Origin: Eledone cirrhosa | Lineage: Eukaryota | Direction of reading: 5' to 3' | NCBI GenBank assembly: GCA_964016885.1 | Contig: OZ024740.1 | Coordinates: 70,308,001 to 70,372,000, forward strand | Length of the DNA stretch: 64,000 bases | Shown here: positions 2,226 through 63,307 of the stretch, in pieces | How the letters are laid out: every line of letters begins with the position of its first letter | How positions within the stretch are numbered: the first letter of the stretch is position 1 | Notes under the pieces: generated by a model | Seen by the model: only the letters and a program-made list of their open reading frames with translations | Databases searched by the model: none | What the model was told of the DNA's origin: nothing | Program-made: the position numbers and the translations under genes

Positions 2226-2384
2226 AGAGGAGCCGGGACTCTACGGCTGAGCTCCTACAGTTTTAACATATATATATATAATTATATATGTAACATATGA
2301 GCACGTATATACACACACACATATATATATATATAGCTTAGCTGACACGAAAAATAACTGCGGTAAGAAATTTGTTCTTATATC

Positions 2385-2703
2385 AAAGTTTGAAGGGCAT
2401 CCACTGATGATTTATAAGTGCCCACCTACATATGTTCTTACAGAAAATTATGTAGGCTTCTACATAAACCGGATACATTCTCCCAACTTGTAGAAAACTT
2501 ATAATGAAACAATTGTTTGGAAAGAGAGATATATTTTAATTTTAATTATATCTCATATAAAATAATACAACTGGCTTTCCACAAAATACATATAGTTAGC
2601 ACCCCAAACACAAAATTGGGATTATACTAAGGTATATCCTAATGTTTGTTGAGTGAGATGGTAGCCAGTCAGAGTTTAGCTTAAAGCTATCTCTGTTATT
2701 GTA

Positions 2704-2708
<5 letters not shown>
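2385..2708 (+). mobile_element. Non-coding HHR-bearing repeat (Penelope pLTR/retrozyme-like), family A
   Basis: About 320 bp clearly similar to 39785-40110; both copies end in (TA)n. Confidence 0.65.
2400..2521 (+). ncRNA. Type I hammerhead ribozyme, branched stem II (family A copy 1, probably inactive GUU site)
   Basis: tcca-CTGATGA-tttataagt..[two hairpins]..acttataat-GAAA-caattg-TT-tgga. Stem I tcca/tgga; palindromic stem III; homologous to 39804-39927. Confidence 0.75.
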
Positions 2709-2779
<71 letters not shown>

Positions 2780-24800: not shown

Positions 24801-26869
24801 GGTAAAATATATATATATATATATATATACTGTACAAATGAAAGTACAGCATATTCGAAGCTCGAGCCGCAGCTAAGCTGACGAATGCCTTCAGCAGTGT
24901 AGCCAAGCACTCGACAAGATATAAGCAGGTTTGAAATTAGAAAATAGCTTTCACCGTTTTTTTGACTAAAGAAATTTAGGCCTGATAATGGGGTTTAGAA
25001 CCCTCAGATAAATGGAAAAAGATGAGTATTGACGTACATGGGAGTCGAATCCTCATCTTTAGTTATCCAGACCACTGTGCTACCATTACACCAACACATC
25101 ACCCATCTCCTTCCATTCAAATTAGAAACTACATTCTTAGCGAGTATAAATGACAAGTAAGTATGTTTTGAAACAGTGAGCAGGTTTGAAATTAGAAAAT
25201 AGAATAGCTTCACCGTATTTTTGACTAAAGAAATTTTAGCCTGATAATGGGGTTTAGAACCCTCAGATAAATGGAAAAAGATGAGTATTGACATAACAAC
25301 AGAACAAATCCGCTTCTTAAAACACTGTGTTTCCTTCGAAATATACACAACAAACATATCAAAACAAGTATGGCGTAGACATACAATACAACAGGAGGAA
25401 ACATAATAGCACCACCGACGATGTTGCAGATGTGCAACGAAAGAACTTTGTTAGACTATATATATGTGTTTGTCTCTATATTATATCTGTATTTTTGACC
25501 GTTGGTCCGTCAATGGTAACATTGAAGACCGAATAAATTAAACTAACTGATATAAAAGATACAGAAGCGAAAACCAACCAAACAGTCAGTGTGTTCCGTT
25601 ATTAATTCTGGCAATATTATTACACAAATATGACCCTCCATATATATATTTGTGTGTGCGTGTTTGTGTGCATGCACGCAAGTGTGAATAGTTGAGTGGT
25701 TTAATGGATGAGTGTATATAAAAGTAGACGGCCGGGTGGTTGGATTGGGAGATGGATTAAAGGATGAATGGCAGATATATTAACGGTTGGGCTGGACGGA
25801 CGGGTAGCTTAAAAAACGGATCCGAAAGCAAACGGAGCGAAACTTTGAAGAATTCCTGTTTTTGTTGTTGTTATTGAGGTCTGGTTGTACAGACATTTGA
25901 GCACATGCATGGTTTATCTAGGAATACATTATCAAAAATGTCCTTTCATTTTATAAAAGGCCGATTACAGTTTAAGATAAATTTGGCTGCCGTTTCTATC
26001 ATGTGAAACGGCCATGCATTTCGCTCTTAGTTGAAATAATCCTTTCAGGATTGATTTCAAAAATGCTATTCAGGTGGGATCTTCTGAGTGCCGGACGGGA
26101 TGCCTTGTAGCATTTGTTCCGCATCTTTGCATTCTAAGTTCAAATCCCACTGGGGCCTAATTTGGTGGTAGACTTAACTTGTCATCTGTTTTAATGCTAC
26201 CACCACATGGTCATTGAGTGATTTTCACTTTGTAGCAAGCATTCGGTAAGCTCTCCGTTTCGAGGATTCCTTCTTCCCTTCTACAAGTCTCTGAAGCCAT
26301 GAAAAGGTCATGTGTACTGTCCTTGCCTCACTGACCAAACAGTAAAGAAAAAGAAAAACAGATGGATGGATGAATTGCTAAATGAATGGATAAATGTTTT
26401 ACTGGTTGGGTAAATAATTGTTTGTTGAGATAGAGCAGTGGCTCCAAACTTTGGTGTGCGCAAATAAAGTGTTAGTGATCCGTGAGCTAGTTTCAAAATG
26501 TCAAGTATCCGTTGAAAATTTAATATGCACACGCTTTTGGGTATTCATTCTTCTCTCAATGCAAACATTTCCTTTTTTCTGTTATTATCACAGTAAAGTA
26601 ATCTGAGAGGGGAGAAATTTTAGGAGGAAATTTTACTGAAATGAAAGCGTTCCTTTGAGAACCATAAGGCAAGTGGGATAACTTATTGGCTTGGTGAATT
26701 GGTGTCTGGATGAGTACAGTGGTGTGCTGGAGTGTACGTCGCAAGGAGTGGTATTTGTAAACGCAAGGAGTGGTATTTCTAAACGCAAGTACCACCCCAT
26801 GAAAAACAACACAATACACATCAAAAGTGACCAAAAGTATATCTCGACAGATACTTTAACAATCCACTG

Positions 26870-32228: not shown

Positions 32229-32342
32229 TACCCGCTGATGAAGCCGCATAAGCCGATTGTGCATTGTTGCATAATATATGCAGACGGATGGTGCAGTGCA
32301 CCTTACTGCTGCATTAGTGCGGCAGAAACTCGAGTCCGGGTA
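32229..32342 (+). ncRNA. Type I hammerhead ribozyme, extended branched stem II (family B)
   Basis: tacccg-CTGATGA-a gccgcat...gtgcggc a-GAAA-ctcgag-TC-cgggta. 6-bp stem I, palindromic stem III, GUC site. Confidence 0.85.
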
Positions 32343-39421: not shown

Positions 39422-39803
39422 ACAAAGTTTGTTTTATAAATAGAGACATACCCATGAAAACCATACCTTATCGGTTGGAAATTCACTGGATAGTGGAAAT
39501 ATATTAGGGATTATTCAAACTTATGTATATATATATATACATTTATATATATATATCGATCGTGTATACATATATTTATTCTTTTAATATCCAATTGAGT
39601 TCTTAAACACGTGGTTATAATACCTAACGTGTATATTGTTTTATATTTTAAGATGACCTCCCCTTACCCTCTTAGGGGGAGCGTATATCTTATCTTTATA
39701 AGGACTGCTGGCCTTTCGAATCTAGCAGTCTCTTTAGCGCTGAAGGAGACAATCACTAATTTATTAATGTCGATGTAATTTTTATATCGATATTATTTGG
39801 GCA

Positions 39804-39927
39804 TCCACTGATGAGTTTATAAGAGCCCGCTTGTGTATAAGACTATGGGTTATATACAAGTTTCTACATAACCTGGACATTATTTATCCCAAATTGTAGA
39901 AATCTTATAACGAAACGATCGTCTGGA
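39804..39927 (+). ncRNA. Type I hammerhead ribozyme, branched stem II (family A copy 2, intact core)
   Basis: tcca-CTGATGA-gtttataaga..[cttgtgtataa/ttatatacaag][tttctaca/tgtagaaa]..tcttataac-GAAA-cgatcg-TC-tgga. Confidence 0.85.
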
Positions 39928-40107
39928 AGGAAAGAGTTATTTATTTAATTATGTCTCATATAAAATAATACAACCAACTATCCACAAAATACTGAACAGT
40001 TAGCACCCCAAACACTAAGTTGGGAAAATACTGAGGTATATCCTAAAGTTTGTTGAGTGAGATGGAGTTGGTCAGAGTATCGCTTAAGGCTTTCTCTATT
40101 AATGTAT

Positions 40108-40174
<67 letters not shown>

Positions 40175-40218
40175 ATTTATATATATATACGTTATTCCGG
40201 GTTGAATCGGAGGTAACT

Positions 40219-40291: not shown

Positions 40292-42716
40292 CAGTGGGTC
40301 CTCGATATACGGTAGTTCTTTATCCGGTAAATTCATAGATACGGTTTGGGGTAATTACTACCATCAATTCTATTTACGGTAAAAAAAATTCACAGATACG
40401 GTTTTTGGTCGTTTTTTGTTTATATTGTAAAGTAGTGCCACCTGTAGTAAGCAATAAATTCCCCCTTGAATTTGTGGAAACTGACTGCTATTCGAATTCT
40501 AGGAAAATTGTGTTACTACTGCTATCGTACTAACTGACCTTACAGAGAAACTGGCCAATCACGAGCGAGTTCAGATATCGGTCGATGACATCATAACTCT
40601 TAACTGATCACTTTAGTTCGGAAAACTAGCGTGTCCTCTCAGCGAGAGAATTTTTGCCGAACTGAAGTGATCAGTTAAGAGTTATGACGTCATTCAAAGT
40701 AAGAGAAAACCCGACGGCGTGTTTTTGGAGCATAATTATCACGGCATATCTTATAACCCATATCTCATGGCCCCAAAACGTCCTGCGAATATTGCTGATG
40801 CAGACGCATGAGGAAGAGCCTGACTTTGGAGATAAAGCTGGACATTTTGAAAAGGAAGGAGCAGGGCAAGGTACGTCCGCCATAAGTCGTAACTTAGGCC
40901 TAGCGCAGTCTACAGTCTGGACTGTTTTAAAAAACAGTGAGGCTGTCCAAAAGGCTGGGGAGAATGCTACGAGTCTACAGAGTAAATTGTTGACCAAACA
41001 TGGTGAGCCGATTATGGATAGGATGGAAAAGTTGCTCAAAATTTGGATCGACGACCAAAATCGTGAAATATGCCTCTGTCTTTAAATGTAATCAGTGAGA
41101 AAGCATTGTCCGTTATTGACAGGCTCAAGACTGAAATGGGGGTGGAGGACTTTGTATTCAAGACAAGCAAAGGCTGGTTTGATAAGTTCAAACGGCGTTC
41201 GAGTCTTCACAACATAAATGTTACAAAATTCAAGGCAGTGTTAGAGAAATGCATTGCAGAGAAGGGGTACAGCAAAAAACAGGTTACTAATTATGATGAA
41301 ACAGGACTTTATTAGAAAAAGATGAACAGCAATAATTATATTGACAAGGAGGAGAAAAGTGCGAAGGGGTTCAAAGCCTCGAAGGACCGCGCTACTCTGT
41401 TACTTGGAGGGAATGCAGAAGGAGATTTAAAGCTAAAGCCACTCATTATCTACCATTCTGAAACTCCAGGAGCACTCAAGGGGTTACTTAAGCAATACCT
41501 ACAAGTGATATGGAAGTCTAATAAGAAGGCATGACTGATCACTTCAATTCACCAGGATCTTTTCACCTCATATCTGTCACCAACCCTTAAGCAATATGCA
41601 TTAGCTAACGACATTGCCAACCGTTTTCTGCTATTAGTGGACAACGCCCCCAGCCACCCACGGGCAATGGCTGACTGGTCAGAAAATATTGAGATTTTGT
41701 TTTTCCCCCCAAACACCACAGCTCTCATTCAGCCGATGGATCAAACAGTCATCAAAACATTTAAGGCATACTACCAACGAGAACCATGCAGCAGCTGATA
41801 AAGGGCACAGATGGGCCTGACAAGCCCACGATCAGGGAATGGTGGAAATTGTACAACATCAAGCACGGCTTAGACAACATCAAGGCATCTTGGAAAGAAG
41901 TGAAGCAGTCTACCATGAACTTGGCCTGGAAGAAATTATGGCCAGCATGTGTGAATGACTTCCTAGACTTTGCTGAGGACATTGGTGCGATAAAAAAAGA
42001 TATTGTAAATCTCTGCCATAGAGCTGGCTTCGATGGTGTTAATGATAATTATGATGATGTGCAAGACCTTTTGGAAAACCACGCTGAACCACTCTCCAAT
42101 GATGAACTCATAGAACTAGACAAAGCGATACAGGAGACAGAAAAAGAAGAAGAGGAGGAAGAAGAACCTGTGCGTCTCGGGAGTATCGAAACAATCTTAG
42201 AAACCCTGAAGGAGCGTGACCCCAACCCTGCTAGGAGCAGCAAAGTGGCTCAAGAAAAAAGCGTCAAGATTTACCAAGAAATGTATGAAGCCAAAAGAAA
42301 CACCGCTAAACAGACCTTCATTTACTCTTTCTTCAAGCCAGTCACACCTGCCAACCGTGCTACAGCTGGCCCTTCAACATCCCCTGCAGTCAACGAGTTT
42401 GTTGGTTTTGAGTCTCCCACATCACCTTCATCCTCTCCTGCCAACTCAGCCCAAGATGAGTAAGGGCTGAAACCCATACTGTCCCTTAGCCTCGGGAGGG
42501 ATAAATGAAGAGGTACATCATCTGATGGATTACGCAGCATGTATAAGGTACAGTAAATTTTAAAAAAACATTATTTCTTTTCTGGAGGGATGACATTTTC
42601 GATGTGCTGGAACGCATCCCTATCTATTTCATGTTATAATGGGTTCTTTATACGGTAATTCGATATACGGTAAGGGTTTCTGGAACGCATATATACCGTA
42701 TATCGAGGACTCACTG
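40292..42716 (+). mobile_element. Full-length Tigger/pogo DNA transposon
   Basis: 23-bp TIRs CAGTGGGTCCTCGATATACGGTA / TACCGTATATCGAGGACTCACTG, TA on both sides, subterminal ATACGG(T/TA) repeats. Confidence 0.93.
40767..42463 (+). pseudogene. Tigger/pogo transposase (CENP-B-like HTH plus DDD), disrupted
   Basis: MAPKR start; LAQSTVWTVLKN; FKTSKGWFDKFKRR; NYDETGL; KASKDRATLLLGGNAEG; DNAPSHP; PPNTTALIQPMDQ; several frameshifts and stops. Confidence 0.92.
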
Positions 42717-53772: not shown

Positions 53773-54857
53773 TTATATGTCACGGTTGTAACTATATATA
53801 TATATAAACCCACTGGTGCGTATATTTTTATTGGCAGCCTGACCCTCCCAAAGTATAACAATATCTGTTTCAACACACGTTTTCAGATAAGAAATCTTGT
53901 AAAACAAATTAAAATACAAAGCAAACATATATATATATAGTTGAAAATTGCAAACTTGACTGTCACCACAGAATATGAACCTGAAGATTGCGAAAGCATG
54001 AAAGTACTTGTTCAATTAACACTTAACATTTAATGTTCTACCATACTATTTCATTCTAATACCATTATACATTTTAAAGGATTGTAAATAAAACGAGTAA
54101 ATCAGACAAAGTTGGAATTCCTTTTATTAATATAATCTTCTATACACAATCATACACACCCATGTATATTTATTTATTTATATATATATATATATTTGAT
54201 ATATGTTTATCCTTATCGAGCCCTCTTTGGATTTTAGTCTTCAAATTTATTATTATTACTATATATATTGCAACAATTATAAAATAATTCAATCTGTCGT
54301 ATTTAAGAAAAGATAATCTTTAAGTACACTTTTGTGGCTTTTAACCGTCACATTTTAACTATCCCAATAACTTATTTTAGTTATTATTCGCACTAGCCTG
54401 AAGTATCTGGTCTTTAATGCGAAGAAATACCTATGATGGCTAGTAGATCACTGATGATGGATTGTCCTATTTCTAAGTCTTCATTTTAATTTGTATATCA
54501 CATTTGCAACAACACAGCACGCCATTTTCATTCCTATATATATATATATATATATATATATTGGGAAGTGTATCGAGCAGGTGGATTGCATAGGTAACCC
54601 AGACTGCGTCAATGTGTGTATAAATATACATATTTTTAACATGTAAACATGTAAACATACCAGAAATACGAATTTCGCTGTAAATTGAAAAAAAAATGAC
54701 AAACATCTTTAATCCATTTGCGGACCTATTTGAGCCTTCATTGCATTTCATTATCATTATCATCAGTCCGTTTTCCATAATATCATAGGTTGATCAGGTT
54801 GTTACGATGAAGAATAGACGGATCGCGAGATCACATCTTGCTCATACGTTCGGTCGT

Positions 54858-62542: not shown

Positions 62543-62585
62543 ACGATGTACTAGTTTCAAGCTTCTTAGCTATCATCAGCACCGT
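62543..62585 (-). ncRNA. Minimal type I hammerhead ribozyme (family H)
   Basis: Reverse complement of 63265-63307. Confidence 0.85.
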
Positions 62586-63264: not shown

Positions 63265-63307
63265 ACGGTGCTGATGATAGCTAAGAAGCTTGAAACTAGT
63301 ACATCGT
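63265..63307 (+). ncRNA. Minimal type I hammerhead ribozyme (family H)
   Basis: acggtg-CTGATGA-t agct aaga agct t-GAAA-ctag-TA-catcgt. Confidence 0.85.

Follow-up and report, generated by a model that had tools for sequence, protein, structure and literature searches.

The window analysed here, a stretch of 64,000 nucleotides of Eledone cirrhosa DNA, contains at 39799–39927 a sequence that reads as a hammerhead ribozyme with a large branched insert in stem II. This raises the questions of whether the ribozyme and its fold are maintained, what the insert does and what kind of element carries them. Every element named in an earlier note on this DNA was found in the sequence of the segment, which is a complete type I hammerhead on the plus strand with 97 nt separating its catalytic boxes. 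The boxes CUGAUGA (39808–39814) and GAAA (39912–39915), read from the sequence and aligned by the Rfam model RF00163, are followed by the triplet GUC (39921–39923), giving CUGANGA, GAAA and NUH in the order of a type I core. From the place of the triplet in the hammerhead consensus, cleavage is predicted 3′ of 39923. By RNAalifold and pair counts, the core is surrounded by three helices, of which stem I is the open one; stem III is predicted to be stable only in a dimer. Stem I pairs 39804–39807 with 39924–39927. The 5′ strand of stem II (39815–39824) consists of G10.1, a bulged U and an 8-bp part (39817–39824) that pairs with 39903–39910, and its 3′ strand (39903–39911) ends with C11.1. Above it lie a single-stranded junction strand GCCCG (39825–39829), which the RNAalifold consensus leaves unpaired, hairpin 1 (39830–39860) and hairpin 2 (39862–39901), the last with a 7-bp stem, an internal loop and a 3-bp inner helix.

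The RF00163 model (Hammerhead_1) aligned every core position and left 93 nt unmodelled, and its score of 18.4 bits stayed below the gathering score of 34. On six other loci it gave a match in one (19.5 bits). An Rfam scan of the entire window was dominated by microsatellite miRNA look-alikes, and the hammerhead was absent from the best 150 of its 233 matches. The motif thus escapes the standard hammerhead models, as had been predicted.

A second hammerhead of this kind is present at 2395–2521 of the window, with 95 nt between the boxes and GUU (2515–2517) as the cleavage triplet. Genomic copies were collected by a profile search, which gave 219 matches in 246 loci; the 189 full-length matches retained represent 125 distinct sequences. 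These fell into 15 clusters, six of them with at least 5 members and with medoids 65–89% identical. The sizes of these subfamilies are biased, because most loci were top BLAST hits. The core boxes are intact in all six subfamilies, with departures in 7 of 1,379 cells versus 152 of 4,896 for unpaired columns (in a sample biased to top hits), and the cleavage-site base is only C, U or A among the 125 sequences, which matches NUH chemistry. The base of stem II (10.1–11.1) is G-C in the subfamily of the window copy, A-U in subfamily C and U.U in subfamilies B, B2, D and E. A U.U at this place is reported as tolerated (PMC3088659, PMC7229834), and both the U.U and the GUU of the copy near 2400 are traits of its entire subfamily, not decay of a single copy. 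Since several subfamilies carry U.U and GUU, cleavage may be slow.

The helices were compared between the majority sequences of the six subfamilies for 28 pairs, which cover the three stems of the hammerhead, all of hairpin 2 and hairpin 1 at its base, omitting the seven upper pairs of the latter. Eight of these pairs vary, all eight changes are two-sided, and no pair is broken. When the columns were re-paired with other columns 20,000 times, the mean was 0.7 two-sided and 12.4 broken pairs, and no re-pairing had more than 5 two-sided or fewer than 5 broken pairs. Among 18 representatives, two-sided changes were seen in 9 of the 33 named pairs; none of 500 shuffles scored as high, and 0–3 pairs remained when the pairs were slid. 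Unconstrained RNAalifold on the same representatives recovered the same three-way junction, with two-sided change in 12 of 35 pairs, and an extension of stem I past GGGC was absent from its prediction. Helix by helix, two-sided change was found in 3 of the 8 pairs of stem II and 2 of the 4 basal pairs of hairpin 1; U-A is replaced by C-G in the stem of hairpin 2 and, in subfamilies C and E, in stem I, and A-U by U-A in the inner helix of hairpin 2. This covariation represents about ten evolutionary events on one tree in one genome, not a large independent sample. The earlier note had proposed a selected three-way junction capping stem II. Covariation is present in the larger alignment of genomic copies, and the two-sided changes, the RNAalifold fold and the shuffle test agree. 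Judged from these sequences, the branched three-way-junction fold is very probably under selection.

Common ancestry or CpG deamination could in principle produce such a pattern as an artefact. The independent lineages in the tree are few, and the change from CGATCG to CAATTG in stem III amounts to two CpG transitions, which fits CpG decay. However, CpG positions did not depart faster than other G/C positions within subfamilies (9 of 491 versus 124 of 5,016), most two-sided changes lie outside CpG, and the re-pairing test preserves the phylogenetic pattern of each column. An artefact of this kind is largely refuted and appears extremely improbable.

The inserts of the two window copies, folded alone, give the branched structure (z −3.0 and −4.6 versus shuffles); the fold of the entire window copy is barely better than shuffles (z −1.6). 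Hairpin 1 is present in every subfamily that was folded, with a top that varies in length and register, and the pairing of its upper part is not conserved in the fixed alignment (one pair is kept in 60 of 125 sequences). Two deletions were recorded, each in a single copy and probably post-insertion. One (L167, 140–330) removed part of the stem II insert with most of both hairpins, and the other (L030, 749–891) the top of hairpin 1.

The branched insert might also be a tolerated passenger, that is, a loop II addition to a minimal Penelope-type hammerhead that makes no specific contact, in which selection keeps the insert folded, clear of the core or within a nuclease-resistant circular RNA. The variable top of hairpin 1 and the loss of much of the insert at L167 would suit this reading. 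Modelled as circles, entire units give compact folds (66% paired; z −1.6, −4.5 and −6.0 with 15 shuffles each), and longer helices II without loop-loop contacts are described in PMC4209133 and PMC13725137. In contrast, the junction geometry (5/1/1 unpaired nt), the insert length (95–97 nt in all eight representatives), the GCCC and the internal loop of hairpin 2 are fixed among subfamilies 65–89% identical. Moreover, the 8 columns of GGGC and GCCC are all invariant across the six subfamilies, versus 1 of 8 other unpaired G/C columns, which indicates that these motifs are constrained. A passenger role is regarded as rather unlikely.

GGGC (39799–39802), the 5′ strand of a proposed pseudoknot or alternative helix, and GCCC (39825–39828) can form 4 Watson-Crick pairs in all six subfamilies. 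The complementarity reported earlier for the two window copies holds, but the motifs are identical in both, so a comparison of these two copies is silent on pairing. Among the 18 representatives, none of the 4 pairs showed a two-sided change. Genome-wide searches, which covered the first three positions of GCCC, found copies altered at the first (290), second (68) or third base (61). The GGGC partner was compensated in 1 of 100 listed of the 290, in 1 of 68 and in 2 of 61, about the expectation for independent mutations; most of subfamily B fell outside the first-base search, and most of C outside the other two. The first G of GGGC is altered, uncompensated, in about one tenth of the copies, which weakens that pair. 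Departures within subfamilies kept pairing in 17 of 55 cases in proven helices and in 3 of 18 in GGGC/GCCC. Because departures break the proven helices as often, they were taken as mostly post-insertion noise and excluded as evidence of pairing. A CCC in hairpin 2 was also considered as a partner of the GGG and rejected as inconsistent, since by eye it offers 7 bp in A and only 3 in B. The stem I–stem II pseudoknot suggested in the earlier note is thus unproven: both 4-mers are conserved, yet they never covary, compensated changes are at chance level, and a competing hairpin could arise from these same pairs.

This hairpin leads to another explanation, in which GGGC:GCCC is a co-transcriptional off switch and not a pseudoknot. 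The hairpin, enclosing the 5′ strand of stem I, CUGAUGA and the 5′ strand of stem II, would form before the 3′ half is made, and a protein or a dimer partner would be needed before cleavage. The helix was predicted with P of at least 0.98 in 7 of 8 transcripts ending 40 nt past GCCC. Its P was 0.23–1.0 in 7 of 8 full-length motifs; the 0.00 obtained for subfamily C may be an artefact of register in its GGGG run. In nested models, stem II gives way to GGGC:GCCC in subfamilies B, B2, D and E (P 0.85–1.0); the folding model cannot represent pseudoknots, so this competition is overstated. From geometry, a stem I of 4 bp next to a stem II of 9 bp would fit a parallel pseudoknot poorly, and Perreault et al. 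(PMC3088659) describe activity as sensitive to stem lengths. Nevertheless, the helix of the off switch is likewise free of covariation, and this explanation is considered doubtful.

On present evidence, a pseudoknot, a folding switch and a protein site are inseparable for GGGC/GCCC. The junction could keep GCCC single-stranded for pairing with GGGC, the result being either a stabilising pseudoknot, whose chance we put somewhat short of even, or a competing hairpin that delays folding, which seems rather unlikely. A tentative model, favoured by us less often than not, is that the junction domain of about 80 nt replaces the loop 1–loop 2 contact, presents GCCC to GGGC and sets the activity of the ribozyme. 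In this model it would be either a clamp or a folding switch that dimerisation or a helper reverse transcriptase releases.

For stem III, the earlier note had given CGATCG in the window copy at 39799 and CAATTG in the other. The sequences were borne out, but an ordinary hairpin stem was not, since they belong to a self-complementary 8-mer. In the window copy this is ACGAUCGU at 39915–39922, a predicted dimerisation helix with a self-duplex of −10.0 kcal/mol (−6.4 to −14.7 kcal/mol in 8 representatives). As a monomer, stem III would have 2 bp and a 4-nt loop, and a stable fold was not predicted. A pattern in which the four inner positions were left free or semi-free gave 3,410 matches. Of the first 100, 97 are palindromes (CAATTG 65, CGATCG 24, CGGCCG 8), and none has half of the AT-to-GC change alone. 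The change sits in the loop of the monomer and is paired only in the dimer. In subfamilies C, E and G, stem III is longer or of odd length and still self-complementary. Contigs of one sample (three runs; possibly the genome's own source) show presence only, with the two stem III changes at 39918/39919 at equal depth. Short palindromic helices III and activity as dimers have been described (PMC4209133, PMC7229834). The palindrome points to cleavage as a dimer, and on this model the hammerhead likely cleaves in that form. Monomeric hammerheads of coral retrozymes cleave efficiently (PMC7229834), so a dimer may be unnecessary. For predicted Xenopus retrozyme dimers, 8 of 9 were reported without cleavage in vitro (bioRxiv 10.64898/2026.07.22.740005). 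The window copy has one hammerhead and no partner in cis, and is therefore probably inert.

The hammerhead belongs to an abundant repeat. BLAST and nhmmer against other copies and tandem units delimit, at 39555–40117 (plus strand), a 5′-truncated copy of retrozyme subfamily A, about 560 of 765 bp. The hammerhead at 2395–2521 lies in a 5′-truncated copy of subfamily B (741-bp unit) at 2337–2712 (plus strand), and the two copies are about 79% identical over 320 bp extending beyond the ribozyme. The genome, which is 3.0 Gb and rich in microsatellites, was searched at the DNA level with copies A and B and with three other variants; the candidates numbered 2,095, 1,633, 1,283, 780 and 1,158, and 40 were scored each time. 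A 16-letter marker downstream of the ribozyme had 6,890 genomic matches versus 5 for a control, and a pattern of the 5′ half had 2,956 versus 0. Units stand head to tail with one hammerhead apiece (765 bp in A, 741 in B, 702 in C, 989 in D and 698 in E), with tandem spacings of 683–767, 844 and 988–1030 bp. They are non-coding: the longest ATG frame is 36–97 aa in five units, and tblastn of the units against a Penelope ORF gave nothing below E 0.089. Head-to-tail non-coding units that each carry one type I hammerhead are features of non-LTR retrozymes, whereas an autonomous Penelope-like element would have an ORF for RT and GIY-YIG between pLTRs. By its sequence, the window copy is a truncated monomer of such a retrozyme.

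Copies of the repeat end at a fixed place. Ninety loci taken in genome order contained 97 distinct marker matches, of which 57 had both boxes upstream; the remainder were mostly 5′-truncated. A TA run begins 41–62 nt past the marker in 82 of the 95 copies with enough flank, and the next unit follows in 10 of 95. In the window, the same junction leads into the (TA)n target microsatellite at 40112–40190. The common 3′ end lies about 190 nt past the predicted cut, not at the cleavage site, and directly after a conserved hairpin (40074–40097, plus strand; 7 pairs, one of them two-sided, in 14 sequences), which is a candidate start signal for reverse transcription.

Further features of the repeat were observed in single places. 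Within the D unit at L115 (989 bp), about 260 bp are duplicated (79% identical), starting around the 3′-terminal hairpin, so this unit may have two start sites for reverse transcription. Subfamily B copies at L039–L050, L056 and L057 (contigs C20 and C27) lie in near-identical flanks, and the C20 flanks recur about every 105 kb, as in a very large tandem or segmental repeat. At L015 (1387–3061), two C units are followed by an A copy joined via a short TA run, which suggests that subfamilies insert into each other's TA tails. Two small hairpins lie upstream of the window hammerhead (39704–39750), the first of which starts with a motif common to units A, B and C.

Penelope-like elements were considered as a possible helper. 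In one very young family the 1,210-aa frames are identical and contain an Asn-rich stretch; the family has tandem units of 4.1 kb and many inverted pairs, and showed 100% identity in 150 of 150 scored matches. Two of its frames are at L246 1573–5205 and 5690–9322 (C1:307339500–307349400), with a small hammerhead at L246 1345, and 27 of 30 fetched loci of the family terminate at a few discrete sites in (TA)n. Pfam found no domain in the 1,210-aa or 395-aa putative helper frames; we take the main candidate helper to be a Penelope from motifs, domain order and its tandem and inverted layout. A second Penelope-like family (L018 2060–3146, minus strand), the one place where Pfam found GIY-YIG, ends in (TA)n and carries a minimal hammerhead of its own about 210 nt ahead of that end. 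The small hammerheads of both families are unrelated in sequence to that of the repeat, and the best match between the unit and the two Penelope ends, the ones compared among the Penelope families of this genome, was 15 nt on the opposite strand. An A copy abutting a Penelope ORF (L005) was ruled out as a shared pLTR, being joined to an inverted Penelope 5′ junction. The neighbours at L018 and L037 were rejected as linked elements, the (TA)n between them pointing to co-insertion. The link between repeat and Penelope is thus suggested by the common insertion signature and the literature rather than by sequence homology. Internal initiation by the RT and AT-rich targets have been reported for a Penelope (PMC11167929).

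The same source reports that a Penelope hammerhead mutant still supported insertion in vitro, with cleaved ends absent in RNA-seq, and this bears on whether the ribozyme is needed at all. If it were dispensable, the structure would serve in binding the helper RT or in packaging, and uncleaved tandem transcripts would be the source from which the repeat spreads. The 3′ end of the copies, which differs from the cleavage site, and the weak core variants (U.U, GUU) fixed in abundant subfamilies would agree with this. The intact core boxes of all six subfamilies and the restriction of the cleavage-site base to C, U and A in the 125 sequences oppose it, and we consider it improbable.

Our main reading, with a probability of roughly two thirds, is that the locus is a branched type I hammerhead in a truncated retrozyme copy, which likely cleaves as a dimer and whose family is likely copied into (TA)n by Penelope-like enzymes. 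Read-through transcripts would carry at least two hammerheads, whose palindromic stem III strands would probably pair and complete the active site. Cleavage after GUH would then release a unit-length RNA, which, by analogy with other retrozymes, may on balance become circular. A Penelope RT/GIY-YIG protein would, with good probability, nick (TA)n and begin to reverse-transcribe the RNA from a fixed internal site, about 190 nt beyond the cut. An internal start beside the conserved hairpin would yield the common 3′ end, the ragged 5′ ends and the partial tandems that are observed, the Penelope enzyme being the presumed agent.

Other features of the window were also noted. A 31-nt stretch that includes CUGAUGA and GAAA boxes is found twice, in inverted orientation, at 62549–62579 and 63271–63301, and is possibly a minimal hammerhead in an inverted Penelope end. 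Two more loose matches to the hammerhead pattern (32235–32336 and 53981–54009) may be due to chance. Downstream of copy A, a degraded coding remnant like that of a DNA transposon (40780–41500) is presumably Tigger/pogo-like. Rfam also gave a tRNA match at 25030–25100 on the minus strand (32 bits versus a cut-off of 29).

The significance of the family is that a repeat with about 7,000 marker matches bears a hammerhead missed by Rfam. The core-only search of Craig et al. (PMC8557442) allowed 7–17 nt between the boxes, and half cores further apart were noted there. With this limit, hammerheads may be undercounted both in animal surveys and in those of 'hammerhead-less' Penelope clades. If the junction domain controls activity, long-stem-II hammerheads would form a class that current descriptors miss, and some elements now described as lacking hammerheads might belong to it. 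The six subfamilies offer a natural panel of variants for dimer cleavage and for a large stem II domain. The fixed internal 3′ end, the (TA)n target and the conserved terminal hairpin form a genomic signature for the putative partnership of retrozyme and Penelope.

Both the ribozyme class and the element class are known, and the hammerhead is a structural variant of those of animal non-LTR retrozymes. As described by Cervera & de la Pena 2020 (PMC7229834) and Li et al. (bioRxiv 10.64898/2026.07.22.740005), these likewise consist of tandem units that are non-coding and low in GC, each bearing a single type I hammerhead with a short helix III, and are dispersed as thousands of monomers, dimers and trimers alongside Penelope-like elements; the axolotl HHR_Amex2 shares the U.U at the base of helix II. 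Their descriptions have a 4-bp stem and a small loop where about 97 nt and a three-way junction separate the boxes here, and the present repeat differs further in the lack of a canonical loop 1–loop 2 contact and in the fixed 3′ end in (TA)n. Its units are 700–1030 bp, compared with about 300 typically and 51–972 in the preprint. A natural animal hammerhead with a branched stem II was not found in the literature searched, though supplementary alignments and subscription journals could hold cases.

The minimal hammerheads of Penelope pseudo-LTRs, as presented in PMC4209133, share a helix I of 4 bp, a helix II of 7–8 bp, palindromic positions 15.2–16.2 and loop 3, and predicted dimeric action. 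In contrast, here two hairpins cap helix II and the unit has no ORF. The pseudoknot-stabilised hammerheads of Perreault et al. 2011 (PMC3088659) have the same 4-bp complementarity between a strand 5′ of stem I and an unpaired strand atop stem II. Theirs commonly combine a stem II that is very short with mutational proof, whereas here stem II is 9 bp, the partner strand lies in the junction and covariation is lacking. The discontinuous Clec2 hammerhead of mammals (PMC6155905, PMC6765202) is also a natural hammerhead concealed from standard searches by a large insertion. It is described as type III, with 150–1500 nt in helix I and a place in an mRNA 3′ UTR, whereas the present hammerhead is type I, with the insertion in stem II, a short conserved branched fold and a mobile repeat as its carrier.
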